Of a stretch of 11,126 bases of DNA, positions 2,557-11,126 are shown piece after piece (the stretch's first letter is position 1; each line of letters opens with the position of its first letter). The notes under the pieces were generated by a model. The model was not told the DNA's origin. It saw only the letters and a list, made by a program, of their open reading frames with translations, and made no database searches. The stretch lies in IMG/VR virus record IMGVR_UViG_2695420564_000012; one strand, given 5' to 3'. This DNA is from a virus. Its lineage: Duplodnaviria; Heunggongvirae; Uroviricota; Caudoviricetes. The translations under genes were made by a program, and so were the position numbers.

Positions 2557-4869
2557 ATGGCCGTTAAAGCCTCCGGGCGTTTTGTCCCTCCGTCAGCATT
2601 TGCCGCAGGCACCGGTAAGACGTTTACCGGTGCTTATGCATGGAACGCGCCACGCGAGGCTGTCGGGCGCGAAAGACCCCTTACACGTGACGAGATGCGT
2701 CAGGTGCAAGGTGTTTTATCCACGATTAACCGCCTGCCTTACTTTTTGCGCTCGCTGTTTACTTCACGCTATGACTACATCCGGCGCAATAAAAGCCCGG
2801 TGCACGGGTTTTATTTCCTCACATCCACTTTTCAGCGTCGTTTATGGCCGCGCATTGAGCGTGTGAATCAGCGCCATGAAATGAACACCGACGCGTCGTT
2901 GCTGTTTCTGGCAGAGCGTGACCACTATGCGCGCCTGCCGGGAATGAATGACAAGGAGCTGAAAAAGTTTGCTGCCCGTATCTCATCGCAGCTTTTCATG
3001 ATGTATGAGGAACTCTGCGATGCCTGGGTGGATGCGCATGGCGAAAAAGAATCGCTGTTTACGGATGAGGCGCAGGCACATCTGTATGGTCATGTTGCTG
3101 GCGCTGCACGTGCTTTCAATATTTCCCCGCTTTACTGGCAAAAATACCGTAAAGGGCAGATGACCATGAGGCAGGCATATTCTGCCATTGCCCGCCTGTT
3201 TAACGATGAGTGGTGGACTCATCAGCTTAAAGGCCAGCGTATGCGCTGGCATGAGGCGTTACTGATTGCTGTCGGGGAGGTCAATAAAGACCGTTCTCCT
3301 TATGCCAGTAAACATGCCATTCGTGATGTGCGTGCGCGCCGCCAGGCAAATCTGGAATTTCTTAAATCGTGTGACCTTGAAAACAAGGAAACCGGCGAGC
3401 GCATCGACCTTATCAGTAAGGTGATGGGCAGTATTTCTAATCCAGAAATTCGCCGGATGGAGCTGATGAACACCATCGCCGGTATTGAGCGTTACGCCGC
3501 CGCAGAGGGTGATGTGGGGATGTTTATCACGCTGACCACGCCGTCAAAGTATCACCCGACACGTCAGGTCGGAAAAGGAGAAAGTAAAACCGTCCAGCTT
3601 AATCACGGCTGGAACGATGAGGCATTTAATCCAAAGGATGCGCAGCGTTATCTCTGCCGTATCTGGAGCCTGATGCGCACGGCATTCAAGGATAATGATT
3701 TACAGGTCTACGGTTTGCGTGTTGTTGAACCACACCACGACGGAACGCCGCACTGGCATATGATGCTTTTTTGTAATCCACGCCAGCGTAACCAGATTAT
3801 TGAAATCATGCGTCGCTATGCGCTCAAAGAGGATGGCGACGAAAGAGGAGCCGCGCGAAACCGTTTTCAGGCAAAACACCTTAACCGGGGCGGTGCTGCG
3901 GGATATATCGCGAAATACATCTCAAAAAACATCGACGGCTATGCACTGGATGGTCAGCTCGATAATGATACCGGCAGGCCGCTGAAAGACACAGCTGCTG
4001 CTGTTACCGCATGGGCGTCAACGTGGCGCATTCCGCAATTTAAAACGGTTGGTCTGCCGACAATGGGGGCTTACCGTGAACTACGCAAATTGCCTCGCGG
4101 CGTCAGCATTGCTGATGAGTTTGACGAACGCGTTGAGGCTGCACGTGCCGCCGCAGACAGTGGTGATTTTGCGTTGTATATCAGCGCGCAGGGTGGGGCA
4201 AATGTTCCGCGTGATTGCCAGACTGTCAGAGTCGCCCGTAGCCCGTCGGATGAAGTTAACGAGTACGAGGAAGAAGTCGAGAGAGTGGTCGGCATTTACG
4301 CGCCGCATCTCGGCGCGCGTCATATTCATATCACCAGAACGACGGACTGGCGCATTGTTCCGAAAGTGCCGGTCGTTGAGCCTTTGACGTTAAAAAGCGG
4401 CATCGCCGCGCCTCGGAGTCCTGTCAATAACTGTGGAAAACTCACCGGTGGTGATACTTCGTTACCGGCTCCCACACCTTCTGAGCACGCCGCAGCAGTG
4501 CTTAATCTGGTTGATGACGGTGTTATCGAATGGAGTGACCCGGAGGTCGTGAGGGCGCTCAGAGGTGCATTAAAACACGGTCGGAGAACGCCAAGTCGTC
4601 AGCAAAGAAACGGAAGCCCGTTAAAACCACATGAAATTGCACCATCGGCCAGACTGACCCGGTCGGAAAGAATGCAAATTACCCGTATCCGCATTGACCT
4701 TGCTCAGAACGGTATCAGGCCTCAGCGATGGGAGCTTGAGGCGCTGGCGCGTGGAGCGAGAGTAAATTATGGTGATATGTCATTCAAATTTCCAATTGAT
4801 GATCGATTTTATGATGATGTTAACTCTTTGAATTTATGGAGTATTGAGTCTCGTGTGAACTTCACATAA
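2557..4869 (+). CDS. A: P2 gpA-like rolling-circle replication initiator (HUH endonuclease family)
   Basis: Long ORF with an HUH-type motif (GTPHWHMMLF) and a tandem-tyrosine motif (YIAKYISKNIDGY) typical of phiX174/P2 A-type initiators. Extensive match to my recollection of P2 A. The ORF-track start at 2515 is a TTG; ATG 2557 (MAVKASGRF) is the likely start. Confidence 0.92.
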   Translation: MAVKASGRFVPPSAFAAGTGKTFTGAYAWNAPREAVGRERPLTRDEMRQVQGVLSTINRLPYFLRSLFTSRYDYIRRNKSPVHGFYFLTSTFQRRLWPRIERVNQRHEMNTDASLLFLAERDHYARLPGMNDKELKKFAARISSQLFMMYEELCDAWVDAHGEKESLFTDEAQAHLYGHVAGAARAFNISPLYWQKYRKGQMTMRQAYSAIARLFNDEWWTHQLKGQRMRWHEALLIAVGEVNKDRSPYASKHAIRDVRARRQANLEFLKSCDLENKETGERIDLISKVMGSISNPEIRRMELMNTIAGIERYAAAEGDVGMFITLTTPSKYHPTRQVGKGESKTVQLNHGWNDEAFNPKDAQRYLCRIWSLMRTAFKDNDLQVYGLRVVEPHHDGTPHWHMMLFCNPRQRNQIIEIMRRYALKEDGDERGAARNRFQAKHLNRGGAAGYIAKYISKNIDGYALDGQLDNDTGRPLKDTAAAVTAWASTWRIPQFKTVGLPTMGAYRELRKLPRGVSIADEFDERVEAARAAADSGDFALYISAQGGANVPRDCQTVRVARSPSDEVNEYEEEVERVVGIYAPHLGARHIHITRTTDWRIVPKVPVVEPLTLKSGIAAPRSPVNNCGKLTGGDTSLPAPTPSEHAAAVLNLVDDGVIEWSDPEVVRALRGALKHGRRTPSRQQRNGSPLKPHEIAPSARLTRSERMQITRIRIDLAQNGIRPQRWELEALARGARVNYGDMSFKFPIDDRFYDDVNSLNLWSIESRVNFT

Positions 4870-4872
4870 TAT
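4844..4872 (+). promoter_or_regulatory. Candidate sigma70-type promoter for the cargo genes (TTGAGT - 17 nt - TAATAT), overlapping the 3' end of A
   Basis: Hexamers read directly at 4844-4849 and 4867-4872 with a 17-nt spacer, about 50 nt upstream of the SIR2 ATG. Pattern match only. Confidence 0.25.
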
Positions 4873-4923
4873 GGGGCCGTTGTAGGTGTTTGAACAATCA
4901 GACTTCAATTCAAAGGGATAATT

Positions 4924-6171
4924 ATGGTTATTTATCAAGGTGGTAAGATAATATCTGAAGATGATTTTTATTCTCATCTTTATTCGTTATGTCAGTTGGA
5001 TAATGTAGGGGTTCTTTTAGGCGCGGGAGCATCGGTCGGATGTGGCGGCCAAACTATGAAGCAGGTATGGCAGTCTTTTAAATATGAACATCCTGACCTG
5101 TTGAATTTGTTACTAGAAAAATACTTATTGGTTGACAAAACTGAATCTGAAAAAGATATAGTTAATGTTGAGCTTCTAATTGATGAAGTAACTAAATTCT
5201 TGTCTGTGGCGAAAACAAGACGTAATGAAGACGAACAAAAAGAAATTAGTTTAATATTAAGTGCTTTGTATAAACAAGTAACAAGGGCTGCATTGTTAAC
5301 TGGAGAAGAGTTTGGCTGTAAAAATCAAGGGAAGAAAAAACAGTTTAAGTTTCATAAAGAATTAATTTCAAAATTGATTTCAAATAGGCAGCCGGGACAA
5401 TCGGCTCCGGCACTTTTTACTACCAACTATGATTTGGCATTAGAGTGGGCAGCTGAAGATTTAGGAATTCAGCTATTTAATGGTTTTTCAGGGTTGCATA
5501 CAAGACAATTTTATCCTCAAAATTTTGATTTGGCATTTAGAAATGTCAATGCAAAAGGGGAGGCTAGATTTGGTCATTATCACGCTTATCTATATAAATT
5601 GCATGGCTCTCTTACATGGTATCAGGATGATTTTTTAATGGTTAATGAGATAAGTGCATCTCAGGCATATGACAATTACATTAAAAATATTATTAATGGT
5701 GACGGTTTTTACTATGGTCAACATTTGATTTATCCGGGAGCTAATAAATATAGCCATACAATTGGTTTTGTTTACGGTGAAATGTTTAGGCGTTTTGGCG
5801 AGTTTTTGTCAAAACCTCAAACCGCTTTGTTTATTAATGGGTTTGGATTTGGTGATTATCATATAAACAGAATAGTTTTTGGTGCTTTGTTAAATCCGTC
5901 ATTTCATGTTGTTATTTATTACCCTGAACTGAAGAATGCTTTAGATAAAGTTAGTAGAGGCGTTGCTTCTGAAGGTGAAAAAGCAATTGATGCTTTAAAA
6001 AATATGCAATTCAATCAAGTGACTATCGTGGGTGGAGGTTCAGATGCTTACTTTGATAGTTTTGTGAAACATCTTCCTTATCCGGTGTTGTTCCCAAGAG
6101 AAAATACTGTTGATGACTTGGTTGAAGCTATTTCTAAATTGTCTAAAGGGGAAGGGAATGTCGCATTTTAA
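4924..6171 (+). CDS. sir2: SIR2-family (SIR2_2-like) protein, predicted NAD+-consuming effector
   Basis: GAGAS glycine-rich motif near residue 35, TTNYD motif near residue 168 and LHGS near residue 227, the characteristic triad of prokaryotic defence SIR2 domains. AGGGA RBS at 4913-4917. AT-rich relative to flanking phage genes. Confidence 0.85.
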   Translation: MVIYQGGKIISEDDFYSHLYSLCQLDNVGVLLGAGASVGCGGQTMKQVWQSFKYEHPDLLNLLLEKYLLVDKTESEKDIVNVELLIDEVTKFLSVAKTRRNEDEQKEISLILSALYKQVTRAALLTGEEFGCKNQGKKKQFKFHKELISKLISNRQPGQSAPALFTTNYDLALEWAAEDLGIQLFNGFSGLHTRQFYPQNFDLAFRNVNAKGEARFGHYHAYLYKLHGSLTWYQDDFLMVNEISASQAYDNYIKNIINGDGFYYGQHLIYPGANKYSHTIGFVYGEMFRRFGEFLSKPQTALFINGFGFGDYHINRIVFGALLNPSFHVVIYYPELKNALDKVSRGVASEGEKAIDALKNMQFNQVTIVGGGSDAYFDSFVKHLPYPVLFPRENTVDDLVEAISKLSKGEGNVAF

Positions 6172-7978
6172 ACTATCTGAATTATCTGCTATTGGGTATG
6201 TCGTTGGTCTGGAGGGCGAAAAAATAAGGATAAATCTTCATGAAGGATTGCAAGGTAGACTCGCCTCTCATAGGGATGGCGTTAGTTCTGTTACTCAGCC
6301 TGGAGATTTGATCGGTTTTGATGCCGGAAATATTCTGGTTGTGGCTCGAGTTACAGATATGGCATTTGTCGAGGCTGATAAAGCACATAAGGCAAAAATA
6401 GGTACATCAGATATAGCAGATATGCCGTTAAGGCAAATAATAGCCTATGCAATAGGTTTTATTAGACGAGATATAGATGGATGTGTTTTTGTTTCGGAAG
6501 ACTGGAGATTACCTGCTCTGGGAGCATCCGCTGTCCCGTTAACATCTGATTTTTTAAACATCGTATATAGTATTGATAAAAATGATCTGGATAAAGCAAT
6601 TGAGTTAGGAATAGATTCGAGGACTAAATCAGTTAAAGTTTTAGCTAGCATTGATAAATTACTAACTAGGCATATGGCTGTTTTGGGCAGTACTGGATAT
6701 GGTAAATCTAATTTTAATGCTTTACTTACACGCCGAATTTCAGAACAGTACCCTAATGCAAGAATAGTAATTTTTGATATTAATGGCGAGTATTCTCAGG
6801 CTTTTGAAGGTGTTGCTAATGTTAAACATACTATTTTAGGTGAGTTACCAAAAGGAGAGATTCCAAAACCACCTCTACAGAAAGGAGATATATTTTCTGA
6901 GAGTGAACATTACTACTATAGAAAAATACCTTATCAAGCATTGGGATTTGCTGGGTTGATAAAATTACTACGCCCTAGTGATAAGACACAATTACCTGCA
7001 TTAAGAAATGCGCTTAATGCTATAAATAGTGTTCATTTTTCCGATGATTCATTCTTTCTTAAGAATGAAGTAGGGGGCGTATTTAATATTTTTGATGATT
7101 GTAGAGATGAAGGGCAAGAGCTTTTATCTGCGTGGTTGAGCTTCTTAAGAAAAGGGACGCTGTGTAAGGCAAATAAATGGCCGCCGTTTAAAAGTATTGC
7201 TAACTTGGTTGCGGAGTTTGGTTGCGTGGCGGCGGATTCGCGAAAAGCTGGATCTAGTAAACGAGATGCTTTTAGCTATGGTAATGTTCTGCCATTGATT
7301 AAGATAATTCAACAGTTATCAGAGGATTCTAGATTCAAGTATGTTGTTGATTTAAATGGAGGTGGTGAATTATTAGGTGATGGCAAACATTGGGAATTAG
7401 CTATGAAACAGGAAGTTGATTATTTCTTTGGTAAAGAAAAGGGAGAGGAGAATGACTGGAATATTCATATTGTTAATTTTAAGCATCTTTCACAAGATCA
7501 TGCTCCAATGCTGTTAAGTGCATTATTAGAAATGTTTGCTGAAGTTCTCTTTCTTAGAGGTCAAAACAAAGCTTTTCCAACCGTGTTACTTCTTGAAGAG
7601 GCGCACCATTATTTAAGAGATCCTTATTCTGAAGTTGATGCTCAAATTAAAGCTTATGAAAGACTTGCCAAAGAAGGGCGTAAATTTAAATGTTCACTTA
7701 TTGTGAGCACACAACGACCATCAGAGCTTTCATCAACAGTATTAGCAATGTGTGCAAATTGGTTTTCGTTGCGCTTGACAAATGAGCGTGATTTGCAGAC
7801 TTTACGGTATGCGATGGAAAGTGGAAATGAGTTAATGATTCGGCAGATTTCTGGGCTTCCCAGAGGAGATGCAATAGCGTTTGGTGCTGCTTTTAATATA
7901 CCCGTAAGAATTTCAATTCACCCTGCTGTACCCGGTCCGAGATCGTCTGACGCAAGTTATTCTCAAGAATGGCGATAA
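6158..7978 (+). CDS. herA: HerA-family ATPase (FtsK/HerA superfamily)
   Basis: Walker A LGSTGYGKS (~res 177-184), Walker B VLLLEEAHH (~res 476-484) and HerA-typical STQRPS motif (~res 517-522), with a ~300-aa insertion between the Walker motifs and an N-terminal domain of ~170 aa. ATG 6158 has a strong SD (AAGGGGAAGGG) and overlaps the SIR2 3' end by 14 nt. The ORF-track start at 6110 is a TTG. Confidence 0.85.
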   Translation: MSHFKLSELSAIGYVVGLEGEKIRINLHEGLQGRLASHRDGVSSVTQPGDLIGFDAGNILVVARVTDMAFVEADKAHKAKIGTSDIADMPLRQIIAYAIGFIRRDIDGCVFVSEDWRLPALGASAVPLTSDFLNIVYSIDKNDLDKAIELGIDSRTKSVKVLASIDKLLTRHMAVLGSTGYGKSNFNALLTRRISEQYPNARIVIFDINGEYSQAFEGVANVKHTILGELPKGEIPKPPLQKGDIFSESEHYYYRKIPYQALGFAGLIKLLRPSDKTQLPALRNALNAINSVHFSDDSFFLKNEVGGVFNIFDDCRDEGQELLSAWLSFLRKGTLCKANKWPPFKSIANLVAEFGCVAADSRKAGSSKRDAFSYGNVLPLIKIIQQLSEDSRFKYVVDLNGGGELLGDGKHWELAMKQEVDYFFGKEKGEENDWNIHIVNFKHLSQDHAPMLLSALLEMFAEVLFLRGQNKAFPTVLLLEEAHHYLRDPYSEVDAQIKAYERLAKEGRKFKCSLIVSTQRPSELSSTVLAMCANWFSLRLTNERDLQTLRYAMESGNELMIRQISGLPRGDAIAFGAAFNIPVRISIHPAVPGPRSSDASYSQEWR

Positions 7979-8132
7979 TCTTGTGGGAGAATGTAATAGG
8001 ATAACGATAAATGCATCTATCTGCATTAATTCGAATAAGGTTGAGAGGAGTTCAAAAACAAATTTAGACCGGCATTAGAGTGGTTCAGATAGACATATGC
8101 AACTGCATTAAAACCGCCCCGTGAAGCGGGCG

Positions 8133-8151
8133 GGCGAGGCGGGGAAAGCAC
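8133..8151. other. P2-type cos cohesive-end sequence (GGCGAGGCGGGGAAAGCAC), joined as in a prophage
   Basis: 19-nt string matches the P2 cohesive end as I recall it. Lies in a GC-rich non-coding stretch just downstream of the portal gene, the expected position relative to Q. Adjacent inverted repeat CCGCCC/GGGCGG at 8114-8133. Confidence 0.65.
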
Positions 8152-8293
8152 TGCGCGCTGGCGGTGGTGCTGATTTTATTTTTTCAGCGTCTGAGCGCGT
8201 CGTGATGGCGTTTAGATTGTGCGCCGGGGCGTTGGTGTGTCTGCGGGCTGTTTTGTGCGGTGTTGAGCGTGTGAGGGCGTGATGACGGGGTGT

Positions 8294-8315
8294 AAAAAAG
8301 CCGCCCGCAGGCGGC
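8294..8315 (-). terminator. Rho-independent terminator of the P-Q (terminase-portal) operon
   Basis: Perfect 6-bp GC stem GCCGCC/GGCGGC (8300-8305 / 8310-8315) with a 4-nt loop, followed on the - strand by a U6 run (A6 at 8294-8299 on +). Located 5 nt downstream of the portal stop. Confidence 0.7.
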
Positions 8316-8320
8316 GATGT

Positions 8321-9310
8321 TCAGCCGTTGTCAGTGTCCAGTGAGTAGTTTTTAAAGCGGATGACCTCCTGACCGAGCCAGCCGTTTATCTCGCGGATCC
8401 TGTCCTGTAGCGGGATAAGCTCATTGCGGACAAAGACCTTTGCCACTTTCTCAATATCACCCAGCGACCCGACGTTCTCCGGCTTGCCGCCCATCAACTG
8501 AAAGGGGATGCGGTGCGCGTCCAGCAGGTCAGTGGCGCTGGCTTTTTTGATATTAAAAAAATCGTCCTTCGTTGCCACTTCACTGAGCGGGATAATTTTA
8601 ATGCCGTCGGCTTTCCCCTGCGGGGCATAGAGAAACAGATTTTTAAAGTTGTTGCGGCCTTTCGACTTCACCATGTTTTCGCGAAGCATTTCGATATCGT
8701 TGCGATCCTGCACGGCATCGGTGACGTACATGATGTATCCGGCATGTGCGCCGTTTTCGTAATACTTGCGGCGGAACAGCGTGGCCGATTCATTCAGCCA
8801 GGCAGAGTTAAGGGCGCTGAGATATTCCGGCAGGCCGTACAGCTCCTGATTAATATCGGGCTCCAGCAGGTGAAACACGGAGCCGGGCGTGAAAGGTGTC
8901 GGCTCGTTGAAGGACGGCACCCACCAGTAAACATCCTCCTCCACCCCACGGCGGGTATATTTTGCCGGTGAGGTTTCCAGTCTGATGACCTTACCGGTGG
9001 TGCTGTAACGCTTTTCCAGAAACGCATTACCGAACACCAGAAAATCCAGCACAAAGCGGCTGAAATCCTGCTGGGAAAGCCACGGATGCGGGATAAATGT
9101 CGACGCCAGAATATTGCGTTTGACGTAAATCGGGGAGCTGTGATGTACGGCAGCACGCAGGCTTTTTTCCAGACCGGTAAAGCTGACCGGTGGCTCATAC
9201 CATCTGCCGTTACTGATGCACTCGACGTAATCCAGAATGTCACGGCGGTCGAGTACCGGCACCGGCTCACCAAAGGTGAATGCCTCCATTTTCGGGGCGC
9301 TGGCGGTCAT
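8321..9310 (-). CDS. Q: P2 gpQ-like portal protein; native start appears to be ATG at 9354 but is out of frame because of an A7/T7 homopolymer
   Basis: 329-aa ORF matching my recollection of the P2 portal (MTASAPKMEAFTFGEPVPVLDRRDILDY...). An ATG at 9354 with GGAG SD overlaps the terminase stop and encodes MSKKKGKTPQPAAKK before hitting TGA. One extra A would fuse the frames to 344 aa. Confidence 0.9.
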   Translation of the reverse strand: MTASAPKMEAFTFGEPVPVLDRRDILDYVECISNGRWYEPPVSFTGLEKSLRAAVHHSSPIYVKRNILASTFIPHPWLSQQDFSRFVLDFLVFGNAFLEKRYSTTGKVIRLETSPAKYTRRGVEEDVYWWVPSFNEPTPFTPGSVFHLLEPDINQELYGLPEYLSALNSAWLNESATLFRRKYYENGAHAGYIMYVTDAVQDRNDIEMLRENMVKSKGRNNFKNLFLYAPQGKADGIKIIPLSEVATKDDFFNIKKASATDLLDAHRIPFQLMGGKPENVGSLGDIEKVAKVFVRNELIPLQDRIREINGWLGQEVIRFKNYSLDTDNG

Positions 9311-9353
9311 TTTTTTGCCGCAGGTTGCGGTGTTTTCCCTTTTTTCTTGCTCA

Positions 9354-11126
9354 TCAGTAAAACTCCAGAATGGTGGATGTCAGCGGGGTGCTGATACCGG
9401 CGGTGAGTGGCTCATTTAACAGGGCGTGCATGGTCGCCCAGGCGAGGTCGGCGTGGCTGGCTTCCTCGCTGCGGCTGGCCTCATAGGTGGCGCTGCGTCC
9501 GCTGCTGGTCATGGTCTTGCGGATAGCCATAAACGAGCTGGTGATGTCGGTGGCGCTGACGTCATATTCCAGACAGCCACGGCGGATAACGTCTTTTGCC
9601 TTGAGCACCATTGCGGTTTTCATTTCCGGCGTGTAGCGGATATCGCGCGCGGCGGGATAGAACGAGCGCACGAGCTGGAACACACCGACACCGAGGCCGG
9701 TGGCATCAATCCCTATGTATTCAACGTTATATTTTTCGGTGAGTTTGCGGATGGATTCTGCCTGGGTGGCAAAGTCCATGCCTTTCCACTGGTGACGCTC
9801 AAGGATCCTGAATTTGCCACCGGCCACCACCGGCGGTGCCAGCACCACGCATCCGGCGCTGTCGCCACGGTGTGACGGGTCGTAACCAATCCATACCGGG
9901 CGGGAGCCGAACGGATTTGCGGCAAACGGTGCATAGTCTTCCCATTCTTCCAGCGTATCGACCATGCAGCGTTGCAGCTCCTCGAACGGGAACACCGACG
10001 CCTTGTCGTCAACAAATTCACACATGAACAGGTTTTTAAAATCGTCGGCGCTGTTTTCGCGTTTAAGCTGCTCAATGTCGAACAGCGTGCAGCCACCTTT
10101 CAGGGCGTCCTCAATGGTGACAATCTGCCGCCACTGGCCGTCCGCACAGAGAAGACCTCCGGCAAGGGCGTTATGACTGACGTCGATTTCCACGCGTTCG
10201 GCGGCGCTGGCGCGTCCCCGGTTGAACAGTTCACCCGACCAGAACGGGTAGGCGTCGTGCGCCAGCGTGGACGGGGTGGAGAAATAGGTCGAGCGCAGGT
10301 GACTCTGTGAGGCCATACCTGATGCCACCTTACGCAGTACCTGAAAATTCGGGATCCAGAAAATCTCATCGACGTACAGGTCGCCGTTATGGCTCTGTGT
10401 GGTGTTGGAGTTGGTGCCGAGAAAAATCAGTTTTGCGCCGTTATTGCCCAGGACAATCGGGTCACCGGTCAGGTCAACGTCAACCAGCCGGGCAAAGGCG
10501 ATGATGTATTCGCGGAACACATACGCCTGTGTTTTACTGGCCGACAGAAAAATCTGGTTATGACCGGTTTTCAGGGCGCGCAGCAGCGCCTCGCGGGAAA
10601 AATAAAACGTCGCGCCAATCTGGCGGGATTTCAGGATATCGCGGATGCGGTGCTCAAGCCCGGCGCGATACCAGTGCAACTGATATTCGAAAGACTGCTC
10701 AAAGAAAATCTGCTCCAGCTTTTCGATGGCCTCGTCACTGAAAAAATTCTTTTTCGGTTTGCGGCGCCCGCCTTTGTTGCGGTTAGCGACGTTCGGATTA
10801 AGGTCTGCCTCGTTGCCGGTCTGACTGTAGCGGTTTACCCGTGCCAGTCGTTCAATCTGACGTCCCAGCAGGTCAATTTCCTTGAAGTCACCGCCGGTTT
10901 TCTGCGGTTTGATGATGAGCTGGGTCAGCCGCGCTTCCAGACTCATTTCGACACGGCTGATGGGGGCAACGCTGTCCCAGCCGTCGCGCTGTTTCCAGCT
11001 CTGCACCGTCGGGCGTTTCATCTGCAACATGGCGGCAATCTGCGGCACGGAAAACCCCTGCCAGTACAGCAGCGCCGCCTGACGACGCGGGTCGTGTAAA
11101 AGAGTGGTGTCTGTGGTGATGGTCAT
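9354..11126 (-). CDS. P: P2 gpP-like terminase large (ATPase/nuclease) subunit
   Basis: 590-aa ORF with ATG exactly at the window edge (11126-11124) and stop TGA at 9356-9354. Matches my recollection of P2 P in length and sequence. Immediately upstream of the portal on the same strand, as in P2. Confidence 0.92.
   Translation of the reverse strand: MTITTDTTLLHDPRRQAALLYWQGFSVPQIAAMLQMKRPTVQSWKQRDGWDSVAPISRVEMSLEARLTQLIIKPQKTGGDFKEIDLLGRQIERLARVNRYSQTGNEADLNPNVANRNKGGRRKPKKNFFSDEAIEKLEQIFFEQSFEYQLHWYRAGLEHRIRDILKSRQIGATFYFSREALLRALKTGHNQIFLSASKTQAYVFREYIIAFARLVDVDLTGDPIVLGNNGAKLIFLGTNSNTTQSHNGDLYVDEIFWIPNFQVLRKVASGMASQSHLRSTYFSTPSTLAHDAYPFWSGELFNRGRASAAERVEIDVSHNALAGGLLCADGQWRQIVTIEDALKGGCTLFDIEQLKRENSADDFKNLFMCEFVDDKASVFPFEELQRCMVDTLEEWEDYAPFAANPFGSRPVWIGYDPSHRGDSAGCVVLAPPVVAGGKFRILERHQWKGMDFATQAESIRKLTEKYNVEYIGIDATGLGVGVFQLVRSFYPAARDIRYTPEMKTAMVLKAKDVIRRGCLEYDVSATDITSSFMAIRKTMTSSGRSATYEASRSEEASHADLAWATMHALLNEPLTAGISTPLTSTILEFY

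Follow-up and report, generated by a model that had tools for sequence, protein, structure and literature searches.

The closest described relative of the locus analysed here is Nezha, the Sir2-HerA system of E. coli on which Gao et al. 2020, Tang et al. 2023 and Shen et al. 2023 have reportedly worked. What we state about the mechanism of E. coli Nezha rests on later papers which summarise these three reports. The name Nezha is given to PDB entry 8J4U, and Nezha constitutes cluster 1, defined at 70% identity; the E. coli Sir2-HerA types I-III are 13-22% identical to Nezha (PMC13434337). ATP-gated NADase, helicase and nuclease activities combined with abortive infection are described for Sir2-HerA (PMC13434337). 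The systems from Paenibacillus sp. 453MF and S. aureus form a 12:6 supramolecular complex in which the NADase is activated in a HerA-dependent manner (PMC11472057, PMC11514289). For the S. aureus homologue a 12:6 Sir2:HerA stoichiometry is stated and the activation of Sir2-HerA is described as assembly-mediated (PMC11514289). This ratio is in line with the chain letters of 8J4U (Sir2, e.g., chain A; HerA, e.g., chain M) and with the number of chains in each entry. In the Vibrio cholerae homologue each of the mutations N168A and H227A abolishes defence (PMC11559045). As to genomic residence, the gpA-gpQ hotspot of P2-like prophages is a known site of defence cargo (Rousset et al. 2022, PMC9122126), and Table S5B of that report counts 188 occurrences at the hotspot of a SIR2, DUF87 arrangement equated with SIR2 + HerA (Gao et al., 2020).

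The window, i.e., the whole stretch of 11,126 nucleotides which was analysed, carries a gene pair of this kind:

4924..6171, + strand: sir2, 415 aa, predicted SIR2-family NADase effector of a Nezha-type Sir2-HerA system (ORF, profiles, alignment)
6158..7978, + strand: herA, 606 aa, predicted HerA/FtsK-type ATPase partner (ORF, profiles, alignment)
6158..6171, + strand: 14-nt overlap in which sir2 ends and herA begins (sequence and translations)

An earlier note on this DNA had described two overlapping + strand genes for a 415-aa SIR2 protein and a HerA ATPase of about 606 aa, and all motifs which it quoted are present. In Sir2 these are GAGAS (33-37), TTNYD (166-170, with N168 and D170) and LHGS (226-229, with H227), in HerA GSTGYGKS (Walker A, 177-184, with K183), LLLEEAHH (477-484, with E480 and E481) and STQRPS (517-522). 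Even the residue numbers guessed in the note, approximately 168 and 227 in Sir2 and 183 in HerA, turned out to be exact, i.e., N168, H227 and K183. The NADase residues N168 and H227 are conserved and identical in the alignment to chain A of 8J4U (8j4u_A). Walker A and Walker B (L477-E481, LLLEE) of HerA are intact and identical in chain M (8j4u_M).

The long + strand open reading frame which holds herA spans 6110..7978 and has a TTG at its start. Read from the ATG at 6158 the protein has 606 aa, and because its N-terminus MSHFKL pairs with residue 1 of 8j4u_M (MSLFKL) we place the start of herA at 6158, i.e., herA covers 6158..7978. The genes sir2 and herA are adjacent, on the same strand and overlapping, as expected of a Sir2-HerA or Nezha operon. 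The 14-nt overlap, which is annotated across all three E. coli lineages, suggests that both genes form one operon with translational coupling. Shine-Dalgarno-like runs are located 5' of both starts, AAAGGGA at 4912-4918 ahead of sir2 and AGGGG at 6147-6151 ahead of herA. The ORF list for the interval from gene A to cos holds no further frame of at least 70 aa.

The assignment to the Sir2-HerA class, an NADase-type SIR2 protein combined with a HerA ATPase, had been put forward in the earlier note, and PADLOC, NCBIfam, Pfam and the alignment to 8J4U are in agreement with it. The profile searches which the note had proposed for both proteins returned Sir2-HerA families (PADLOC, 7e-189 and 3e-272). 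The PADLOC SIR2 profile PDLC02186 matches Sir2 over residues 1-412 (profile positions 3-408 of 412), the HerA profile PDLC02185 matches HerA over residues 7-606 (2.7e-272). Pfam detects SIR2_2 in Sir2 (3e-09, 37.6 bits vs 24.5) and DUF87 (DUF87/HerA) in HerA (7e-22). With NCBIfam, Sir2 scores 500.9 bits against SIR2_antiphage (NF042942), barely above the equivalog cutoff of 500, and HerA 703 bits against HerA_antiphage (NF042943), below the equivalog cutoff of 800. Both proteins match profiles which are specific for Sir2-HerA systems, in the case of HerA_antiphage with a score under its cutoff.

In RefSeq the Sir2 of the window lineage is labelled 'SIR2 family protein' and the HerA merely 'ATP-binding protein'. 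This lineage is under-annotated because its scores are at or below the equivalog cutoffs. Censuses of defence systems which rely on RefSeq names would miss it.

The surroundings of the gene pair are those of a P2-like element:

2557..4869, + strand: gene A, P2-type replication endonuclease, 770 aa from ATG 2557 (Pfam Phage_GPA, 7e-123); left border of the hotspot
4751..8102, no strand: low-GC cargo block, from the GC profile and the conservation edges; it holds the cassette
4844..4872, + strand: candidate cassette promoter, -35 TTGAGT at 4844-4849, 17-nt spacer, -10 TAATAT at 4867-4872
8133..8151, + strand: presumed P2 cos cohesive-end sequence GGCGAGGCGGGGAAAGCAC, exact 19-nt match; right landmark of the hotspot
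8321..9353, - strand: portal gene Q (Pfam Phage_portal, 3e-14), frameshifted near its 5' end
9354..11126, - strand: large terminase gene P, 590 aa (ORF; annotation and Pfam terminase families of the identical gene)

The stretch 8133-8151 is taken to be the P2 cos by comparison with the P2 reference sequence; zero such matches are expected by chance, and the sequence is invariant among all four aligned loci. Gene A is likewise called with 770 aa in near-identical loci. The cassette lies between the end of gene A at 4869 and cos, which is the A-to-cos slot of P2 where tin and old reside, in accordance with the location given in the earlier note. The GC content is 0.33-0.40 across the cassette compared with 0.51-0.58 in the flanks (about 35% vs about 53%). 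The drop begins at about 4751, and sequence conserved in all lineages returns at about 8103. The cargo block reaches back over the final ~40 codons of gene A and ends on the right 31 nt short of cos. The flanks are ~97-98% identical to prophages which bear other alleles. Here, then, is variable cargo between gene A and cos/Q of a P2-like element, i.e., the gpA-gpQ hotspot.

A sigma-70 scan upstream of sir2 returned no + strand site at threshold. The candidate promoter at 4844-4872, below the threshold of that scan, was found in a relaxed search and matches 8 of 12 consensus positions. Its -10 element overlaps the stop codon of gene A, and the TAAT core is invariant in the three-lineage alignment. 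We list it as an unproven candidate. Scans of the whole window for Rfam families (at gathering thresholds) and for tRNAs found nothing.

Of 5426 complete E. coli genomes, 46 bear the Sir2-HerA family at the P2 slot. These copies belong to three old lineages, one of them Nezha, which among each other have 75-84% amino-acid identity at saturated dS. Between the window and the other two lineages dN/dS is 0.055-0.07, i.e., purifying selection on sir2 and herA is strong. In a sliding-window analysis at saturated dS no window exceeded a dN/dS of ~0.2 except the non-homologous C-terminal tail; because dS is saturated this test for positive selection is of low power. Identity in the catalytic cores is 93-97%. 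Segments of low identity are HerA 201-400, with 50-65% in several windows of 40 residues, and Sir2 41-80 with 53%.

For both E. coli and E. albertii the databases contain many entries with identical proteins. The identical cassette is present in seven otherwise complete-looking P2-like prophages, from the integrase through the capsid genes. In one intact-looking prophage (L005) the DNA corresponding to 4751-8102 is 100% identical except for a single base, 4877, in the spacer between A and sir2. A search of the phage genome collection at the DNA level gave no match to the cassette, and at the protein level two distant hits, an annotated large terminase and an unannotated record, neither of them a cassette carrier. 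For those RefSeq accessions of the proteins of L001 (the 98% allele of the window lineage), L002 and L003 which were searched, no citing paper was found in the literature collection used.

From sequence comparison, the cassette is very probably a Nezha-type Sir2-HerA abortive-infection system, one of the cargoes which P2-like prophages bear at their gpA-cos-gpQ hotspot. The genes probably use a weak promoter of the cassette's own at the end of gene A, the unproven candidate described above, so that expression in the lysogen is expected. If the homologues are a guide, twelve Sir2 subunits would be stacked on a HerA hexamer, and binding of HerA would relieve an autoinhibition of Sir2. The trigger would be phage infection, which may act by lowering ATP or otherwise. 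NAD+ would then be depleted and the infected cell would halt growth ahead of phage progeny. By this route the lysogen population, and with it the prophage, would be shielded from competing phages.

A variation of this reading retains the family but assigns to the window pair a functionally distinct lineage which answers to other phage cues, or is gated in another manner, than Nezha. We consider this possible, though rather unlikely. It has a precedent for distinct gating, as for E. coli type III the sensing of a trigger protein combined with a HerA nickase is reported, and spectrum and gating vary among the E. coli Sir2-HerA subtypes (PMC13434337). Further, one hotspot is common to three deep lineages with saturated dS and just 75-84% amino-acid identity, and the differences are clustered in HerA 201-400 and Sir2 41-80. 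Yet the subtypes which supply the precedent, types I-III, have only 13-22% identity to Nezha compared with 76-82% for the window pair; the catalytic cores are almost unchanged, the overall dN/dS is ~0.06, and a non-synonymous excess appears in no window. Tentatively, and with well under even confidence, one may suppose that the three lineages which alternate at the hotspot are maintained by differing phage recognition or by escape from counter-defence, that specificity resides in HerA ~201-400, probably a helical-bundle insertion, together with Sir2 41-80, and that the spectrum or the gating of the window system is distinct from that of Nezha.

A cassette in decay, the non-functional relic of a dead prophage, is very improbable as a reading, even though this particular copy has visible defects. 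Compared with intact relatives, gene Q lacks 1 nt of an A-run at ~9309-9311 and is thereby frameshifted near its 5' end, hence the portal ORF has 329 instead of 344 aa. In a small DUF5405 gene, codon 2439 (window position) is a nonsense codon. The phage segment of the source contig (CCBU01000076.1 of GCA_000940615.1) abuts unrelated DNA at either side, and the contig ends look chimeric; the junctions at ~338, ~480 and beyond gene P may be real or errors of assembly. The portal frameshift and these contig ends call for caution about carriage of the window copy by a functional phage. However, both gene defects are located in phage genes outside of the cassette, and they may be sequencing errors in a draft which contains Ns. 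Within the cassette both ORFs are full length, the catalytic motifs are intact at a dN/dS of ~0.06, and the DNA of 4751-8102 is, apart from base 4877, that of the intact-looking prophage. Even lower, close to negligible, is the probability that the pair has no part in defence and instead serves phage replication, with HerA acting in DNA repair, translocation or packaging and Sir2 as a sirtuin deacetylase. HerA-family ATPases do act in archaeal double-strand-break repair and DNA translocation, NCBIfam returned weak matches of 87-93 bits to such families, and the large terminase found by tblastn is a distant match of 24.5% identity. But the defence-specific profiles score 700-900 bits and those of repair-type HerA <95, the closest homologue is a defence complex validated by experiment, the locus is a hotspot of defence cargo, and the phage possesses a separate terminase.

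The Nezha-type reading is not a claim of discovery. The system class, its structure and mechanism as well as residence at P2 gpA-gpQ are all published, so the cassette is already known; as a discovery it carries little weight, and public databases already include identical proteins. A modest point besides: three old lineages in otherwise near-identical prophages are natural allele swaps with which the phage specificity of Sir2-HerA can be mapped.

Several other SIR2-containing systems were considered and rejected. Thoeris (TIR ThsB with SIR2-SLOG ThsA) does not apply, with no further ORF of at least 70 aa and neither SLOG nor TIR detected by Pfam; the 415-aa protein contains SIR2_2 only and no extra ORF is present, and here the earlier note, which had seen no TIR, SLOG or other partner, was right. 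It also holds that Sir2 is too small for a DSR-type system: DSR1 and DSR2 are single proteins of ~1000 aa with an N-terminal SIR2 and a C-terminal sensor, whereas the present Sir2, with its 415 aa, has HerA as a partner. SPARSA (SIR2-APAZ with short pAgo) is dismissed on the basis of 51-57 bits for Aga_SIR2 vs 626 bits for Sir2-HerA and of the lack of an Argonaute ORF. The E. coli types I-III were rejected by an indirect test, via identity to Nezha: the window pair cannot belong to them because it is 76-82% identical to Nezha and they only 13-22%.

With tin/old of P2 the cassette has in common the A-to-cos slot and the role in prophage-encoded phage exclusion; the proteins and mechanisms are unrelated. 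The Sir2-HerA systems of Paenibacillus sp. 453MF (8W9L/8WIV) and S. aureus (8YHX/8YHO) belong to the same class (PMC11472057, PMC11514289) yet are distant, with partial alignments and phmmer values from 3e-10 to 1e-15 for Sir2 and from 1e-34 to 4e-26 for HerA; the Paenibacillus HerA (696 aa) has an added C-terminal arm. Nezha of classical-biotype V. cholerae shares the Sir2-HerA pair and the active-site numbering N168/H227 (PMC11559045); a locus of V. cholerae ATCC 14035 was recovered as a relative. The Sir2 identity is only ~56%, and the genomic context differs, i.e., it is not in the P2 hotspot. System #14 of Rousset et al. 2022 (Table S5B) has the same domain arrangement and likewise resides at gpA-gpQ in P2-like prophages of E. 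coli. Its representative, from the third lineage, shares 99.5% identity with the L002 allele and 82% with the HerA of the window.

The differences from Nezha of E. coli NCTC 11129 (WP_021577683.1 / WP_021577682.1; PDB 8J4U, 8SU9 and others) amount to 76 of 415 residues in Sir2 and 144 of 606 in HerA, at a nucleotide identity of ~74% and saturated dS, and are concentrated in Sir2 41-80 and HerA 201-400. Because of the 144 differences in HerA and their concentration at 201-400, trigger range and regulation could differ from Nezha. Upstream of sir2 only ~110 nt align between the lineages, and weakly; beyond, no alignment is possible. In the window gene A is full length, beside the Nezha allele it is truncated or a pseudogene. 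On the other hand, gene order and the 14-nt overlap are alike, both loci occupy the P2 gpA-gpQ slot, and the catalytic residues N168, H227 and K183 stand in identical motifs at equal residue numbers. The proteins are colinear over their full length, with a Sir2 of 415 aa in both and a window HerA of 606 aa compared with a solved chain of 610 residues. Sir2 is 81.7% identical to 8j4u_A in a global alignment without gaps over all 415 residues (1.7e-233 over 1-415), HerA 76.2% to 8j4u_M (global; E=0 over residues 1-605), and both are above the 70% by which cluster 1 is delimited (PMC13434337). The novelty of the pair, left open in the earlier note, is settled by this comparison: judged by its sequence, it is a relative of the characterised Nezha and already known.

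The two defence genes of the window overlap and form an intact operon, located between a P2-type replication gene and the cohesive end. The features of the segment are:

2557-4869, gene A, P2-type replication endonuclease, upstream of the cassette; start ATG at 2557, 770 aa (Pfam Phage_GPA, 7e-123)
4924-6171, + strand, sir2, open reading frame of 415 aa
6158-7978, + strand, herA, 606 aa from the ATG at 6158; the listed open reading frame begins with TTG at 6110
8133-8151, cos, the 19-nt P2 cohesive-end sequence, downstream of the cassette; exact match, none expected by chance
8321-9353, - strand, portal gene Q, downstream of cos
downstream, together with portal gene Q, - strand, large terminase gene P

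The start of herA was set at 6158 because the N-terminus MSHFKL lines up with the first residue of HerA chain 8j4u_M in the solved structure, a chain that begins MSLFKL; sir2 and herA then overlap by 14 nt. Purine-rich, Shine-Dalgarno-like runs are present upstream of both starts. The Sir2 protein carries GAGAS (33-37), TTNYD (166-170, with N168 and D170) and LHGS (226-229, with H227), the HerA protein GSTGYGKS (177-184, with K183), LLLEEAHH (477-484) and STQRPS (517-522). The coordinates, lengths, motifs and catalytic residue numbers which an earlier note had read from the DNA were all correct.

The same note had read the pair as a candidate member of the Sir2-HerA class and had named profile searches as a check. 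These confirm both families. Pfam reports SIR2_2 (3e-09) and the DUF87/HerA central domain (7e-22); the PADLOC models PDLC02186 (SIR2, 7e-189) and PDLC02185 (HerA, 2.7e-272) match over nearly the full length, and every other PADLOC SIR2 or HerA model, including the Argonaute-associated SIR2, scores much lower. The NCBIfam equivalog SIR2_antiphage gives 500.9 bits on the Sir2 protein (cutoff 500), HerA_antiphage 703 bits on HerA, which is under its cutoff of 800. In the PDB, Sir2 matches 8j4u_A over residues 1-415 (1.7e-233) and HerA matches 8j4u_M over residues 1-605 (E=0); these chain sequences are also present in 8SU9 and related entries. Global identities are 81.7% without gaps for Sir2 and 76.2% for HerA. 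The complex in 8J4U, E. coli Sir2-HerA, is the one named Nezha and corresponds to cluster 1 when E. coli Sir2 proteins are clustered at 70% identity (PMC13434337). By this 70% measure the window pair therefore lies within the Nezha cluster. A new Sir2-HerA subtype was considered and rejected on the same ground; types I-III share only 13-22% identity with Nezha (PMC13434337). A HerA engaged in repair or packaging would be another reading of the ATPase. It is contradicted by the profiles, the defence-specific ones scoring roughly tenfold higher.

The genomic position was also claimed properly, i.e., the variable locus of P2 between A and cos, with gene A upstream and an exact cos, Q and P downstream. 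Cos was identified with a 19-nt sequence which we take to be the P2 cohesive-end reference. The GC content is 0.33-0.40 across the cassette versus 0.51-0.58 in the flanks. The drop begins at about 4751, and the 3'-terminal ~40 codons of gene A fall within the low-GC cargo DNA. Beside the other two lineages of the system, gene A (L002 3678-5798; L003 3750-5768) is shorter, at 706 aa, or is annotated as a pseudogene without the C-terminus; this puts the cargo's left recombination junction within gene A, at a point that varies by lineage. Sequence common to all lineages restarts at about 8103, 31 nt ahead of cos. A GC-rich hairpin (8114-8133), conserved in all lineages, abuts cos and is scored as a terminator on the minus strand. 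Another minus-strand terminator, a strong one, lies past the portal stop (8300-8315), and a weak + strand terminator-like site at 8155-8170. Rousset et al. 2022 (PMC9122126) reported this gpA-gpQ hotspot, occupied by old and tin in P2, as a defence-system reservoir, a finding confirmed by Vassallo et al. 2022 (PMC9519451). Table S5B of the former lists 188 occurrences of system #14, 'SIR2 | DUF87', annotated 'SIR2 + HerA (Gao et al., 2020)' (PMC9122126).

The family is present in 46 of 5426 complete E. coli genomes, always as one chromosomal copy. By nucleotide identity to the window three lineages segregate: the window's own (96-98.5%, 15 genomes), one at ~77.7% and one at ~73.8%. One representative of each (L001, L002 and L003) was inspected, and all three lie in a P2-like prophage with gene A on one side and the portal gene on the other. 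The proteins of the 73.8% lineage are nearly identical to 8J4U; to it belongs strain NCTC 11129, whose EcSir2-HerA has been tested by experiment (PMC11514289). The printed representative of Rousset's system #14 is a member of the 77.7% lineage and shares 99.5% identity with L002. Synonymous divergence between lineages is saturated (dS ~1.8), and dN/dS is 0.055-0.07. The catalytic cores are 93-97% identical; amino acid differences gather in residues 41-80 of Sir2 and 201-400 of HerA, and the Nezha-lineage copy in L003 has a C-terminal tail longer by ~14 residues. These comparisons indicate that the three lineages are old, still functional, and swapped as cassettes among prophage backbones of ~97% identity. 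More remote relatives, at 55-62% Sir2 identity, come from Vibrio, Photobacterium, Shewanella and Marinomonas; V. cholerae ATCC 14035 is one of them, and a V. cholerae Nezha system has already been studied (PMC11559045). DNA and protein searches of the phage genome collection found the cassette in none of its records.

Is this particular copy a dead remnant? The phage genes around it do carry defects. The window is 100% identical to L011 53-11178, at the start of contig CCBU01000076.1 (GCA_000940615.1); its closest intact relative is the prophage L005 (99.9% identity). Compared with intact relatives, L005 included, portal gene Q has a 1-nt deletion in an A-run near its 5' end (9305-9315, minus strand), so that its reading frame starts at an internal ATG and encodes 329 aa rather than 344 aa; genuine decay of the prophage or a sequencing error in the homopolymer may account for it. 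Compared with L005, the small DUF5405 gene directly upstream of gene A (2292-2567) is cut from 91 aa to 49 aa by a nonsense change, CAG to TAG, at 2439, and nine Ns are scattered over 477-502. The left end is not P2: 1-338 matches a plasmid-borne dynamin-family gene at its 3' end and 338-476 an internal segment of a PerC-family regulator gene that lies elsewhere on E. coli chromosomes, both with 100% identity; P2-like sequence begins at ~483. From these matches, 1-502 has the appearance of a chimeric assembly or of a junction with heavy rearrangement. On the other side, ~80 nt past the start of gene P, the contig (L011 11179-14223) runs directly into the final ~100 nt of lepA, with lepB-rnc-era behind it, and the P2 capsid, tail and lysis genes are all missing. 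At lepA-lepB the identity to E. coli is just 94.8%, a hint of E. albertii or another Escherichia, or else of a chimeric contig. The phage segment may be a rearranged remnant in an Escherichia other than E. coli, or the contig may be a chimera of the assembly. Yet the defects of this copy are in phage genes, and the cargo block equals that of the intact-looking L005 except for one base, 4877, in the A-sir2 spacer. A dead cassette is thus unlikely.

The operon is fully colinear with the solved defence complex, keeps the NADase and ATPase catalytic residues and is under purifying selection. By analogy with its homologues, Sir2 and HerA would form a 12:6 complex in which HerA binding would switch on an otherwise autoinhibited Sir2 NADase (PMC11514289, PMC11472057). 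Infection would lower ATP and a checkpoint would be released; NAD+ would then collapse and the infected cell would arrest (PMC13434337). In the V. cholerae homologue defence is abolished by mutation of N168 or H227, or by deletion of herA (PMC11559045). In the lysogen the genes are probably expressed from a candidate cassette-borne promoter. A promoter scan at normal threshold found no + strand promoter for the cassette; the sole candidate is TTGAGT-17-TAATAT (4844-4872, 8/12 consensus positions). Its -10 box overlaps the gene A stop codon, and the TAAT core is invariant in the three-lineage alignment.

That the window allele represents a functionally distinct lineage, with another defence spectrum or gating, is possible but rather doubtful; even so, it would still belong to the known Sir2-HerA kind. 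The earlier note was right in observation and in interpretation. Proteins identical to those of the window are present in at least 49 blocks of public E. coli and E. albertii assemblies, under the names 'SIR2 family protein' or 'SIR2 family anti-phage-associated protein' for the one and 'ATP-binding protein' for the other. RefSeq names the window lineage (L001 9125-12179, equivalent to 4924-7978) only 'SIR2 family protein' and 'ATP-binding protein'; for the Nezha lineage it uses 'SIR2 family anti-phage-associated protein'. System class, structure, mechanism, presence at the gpA-gpQ hotspot and the exact sequences are all already public.
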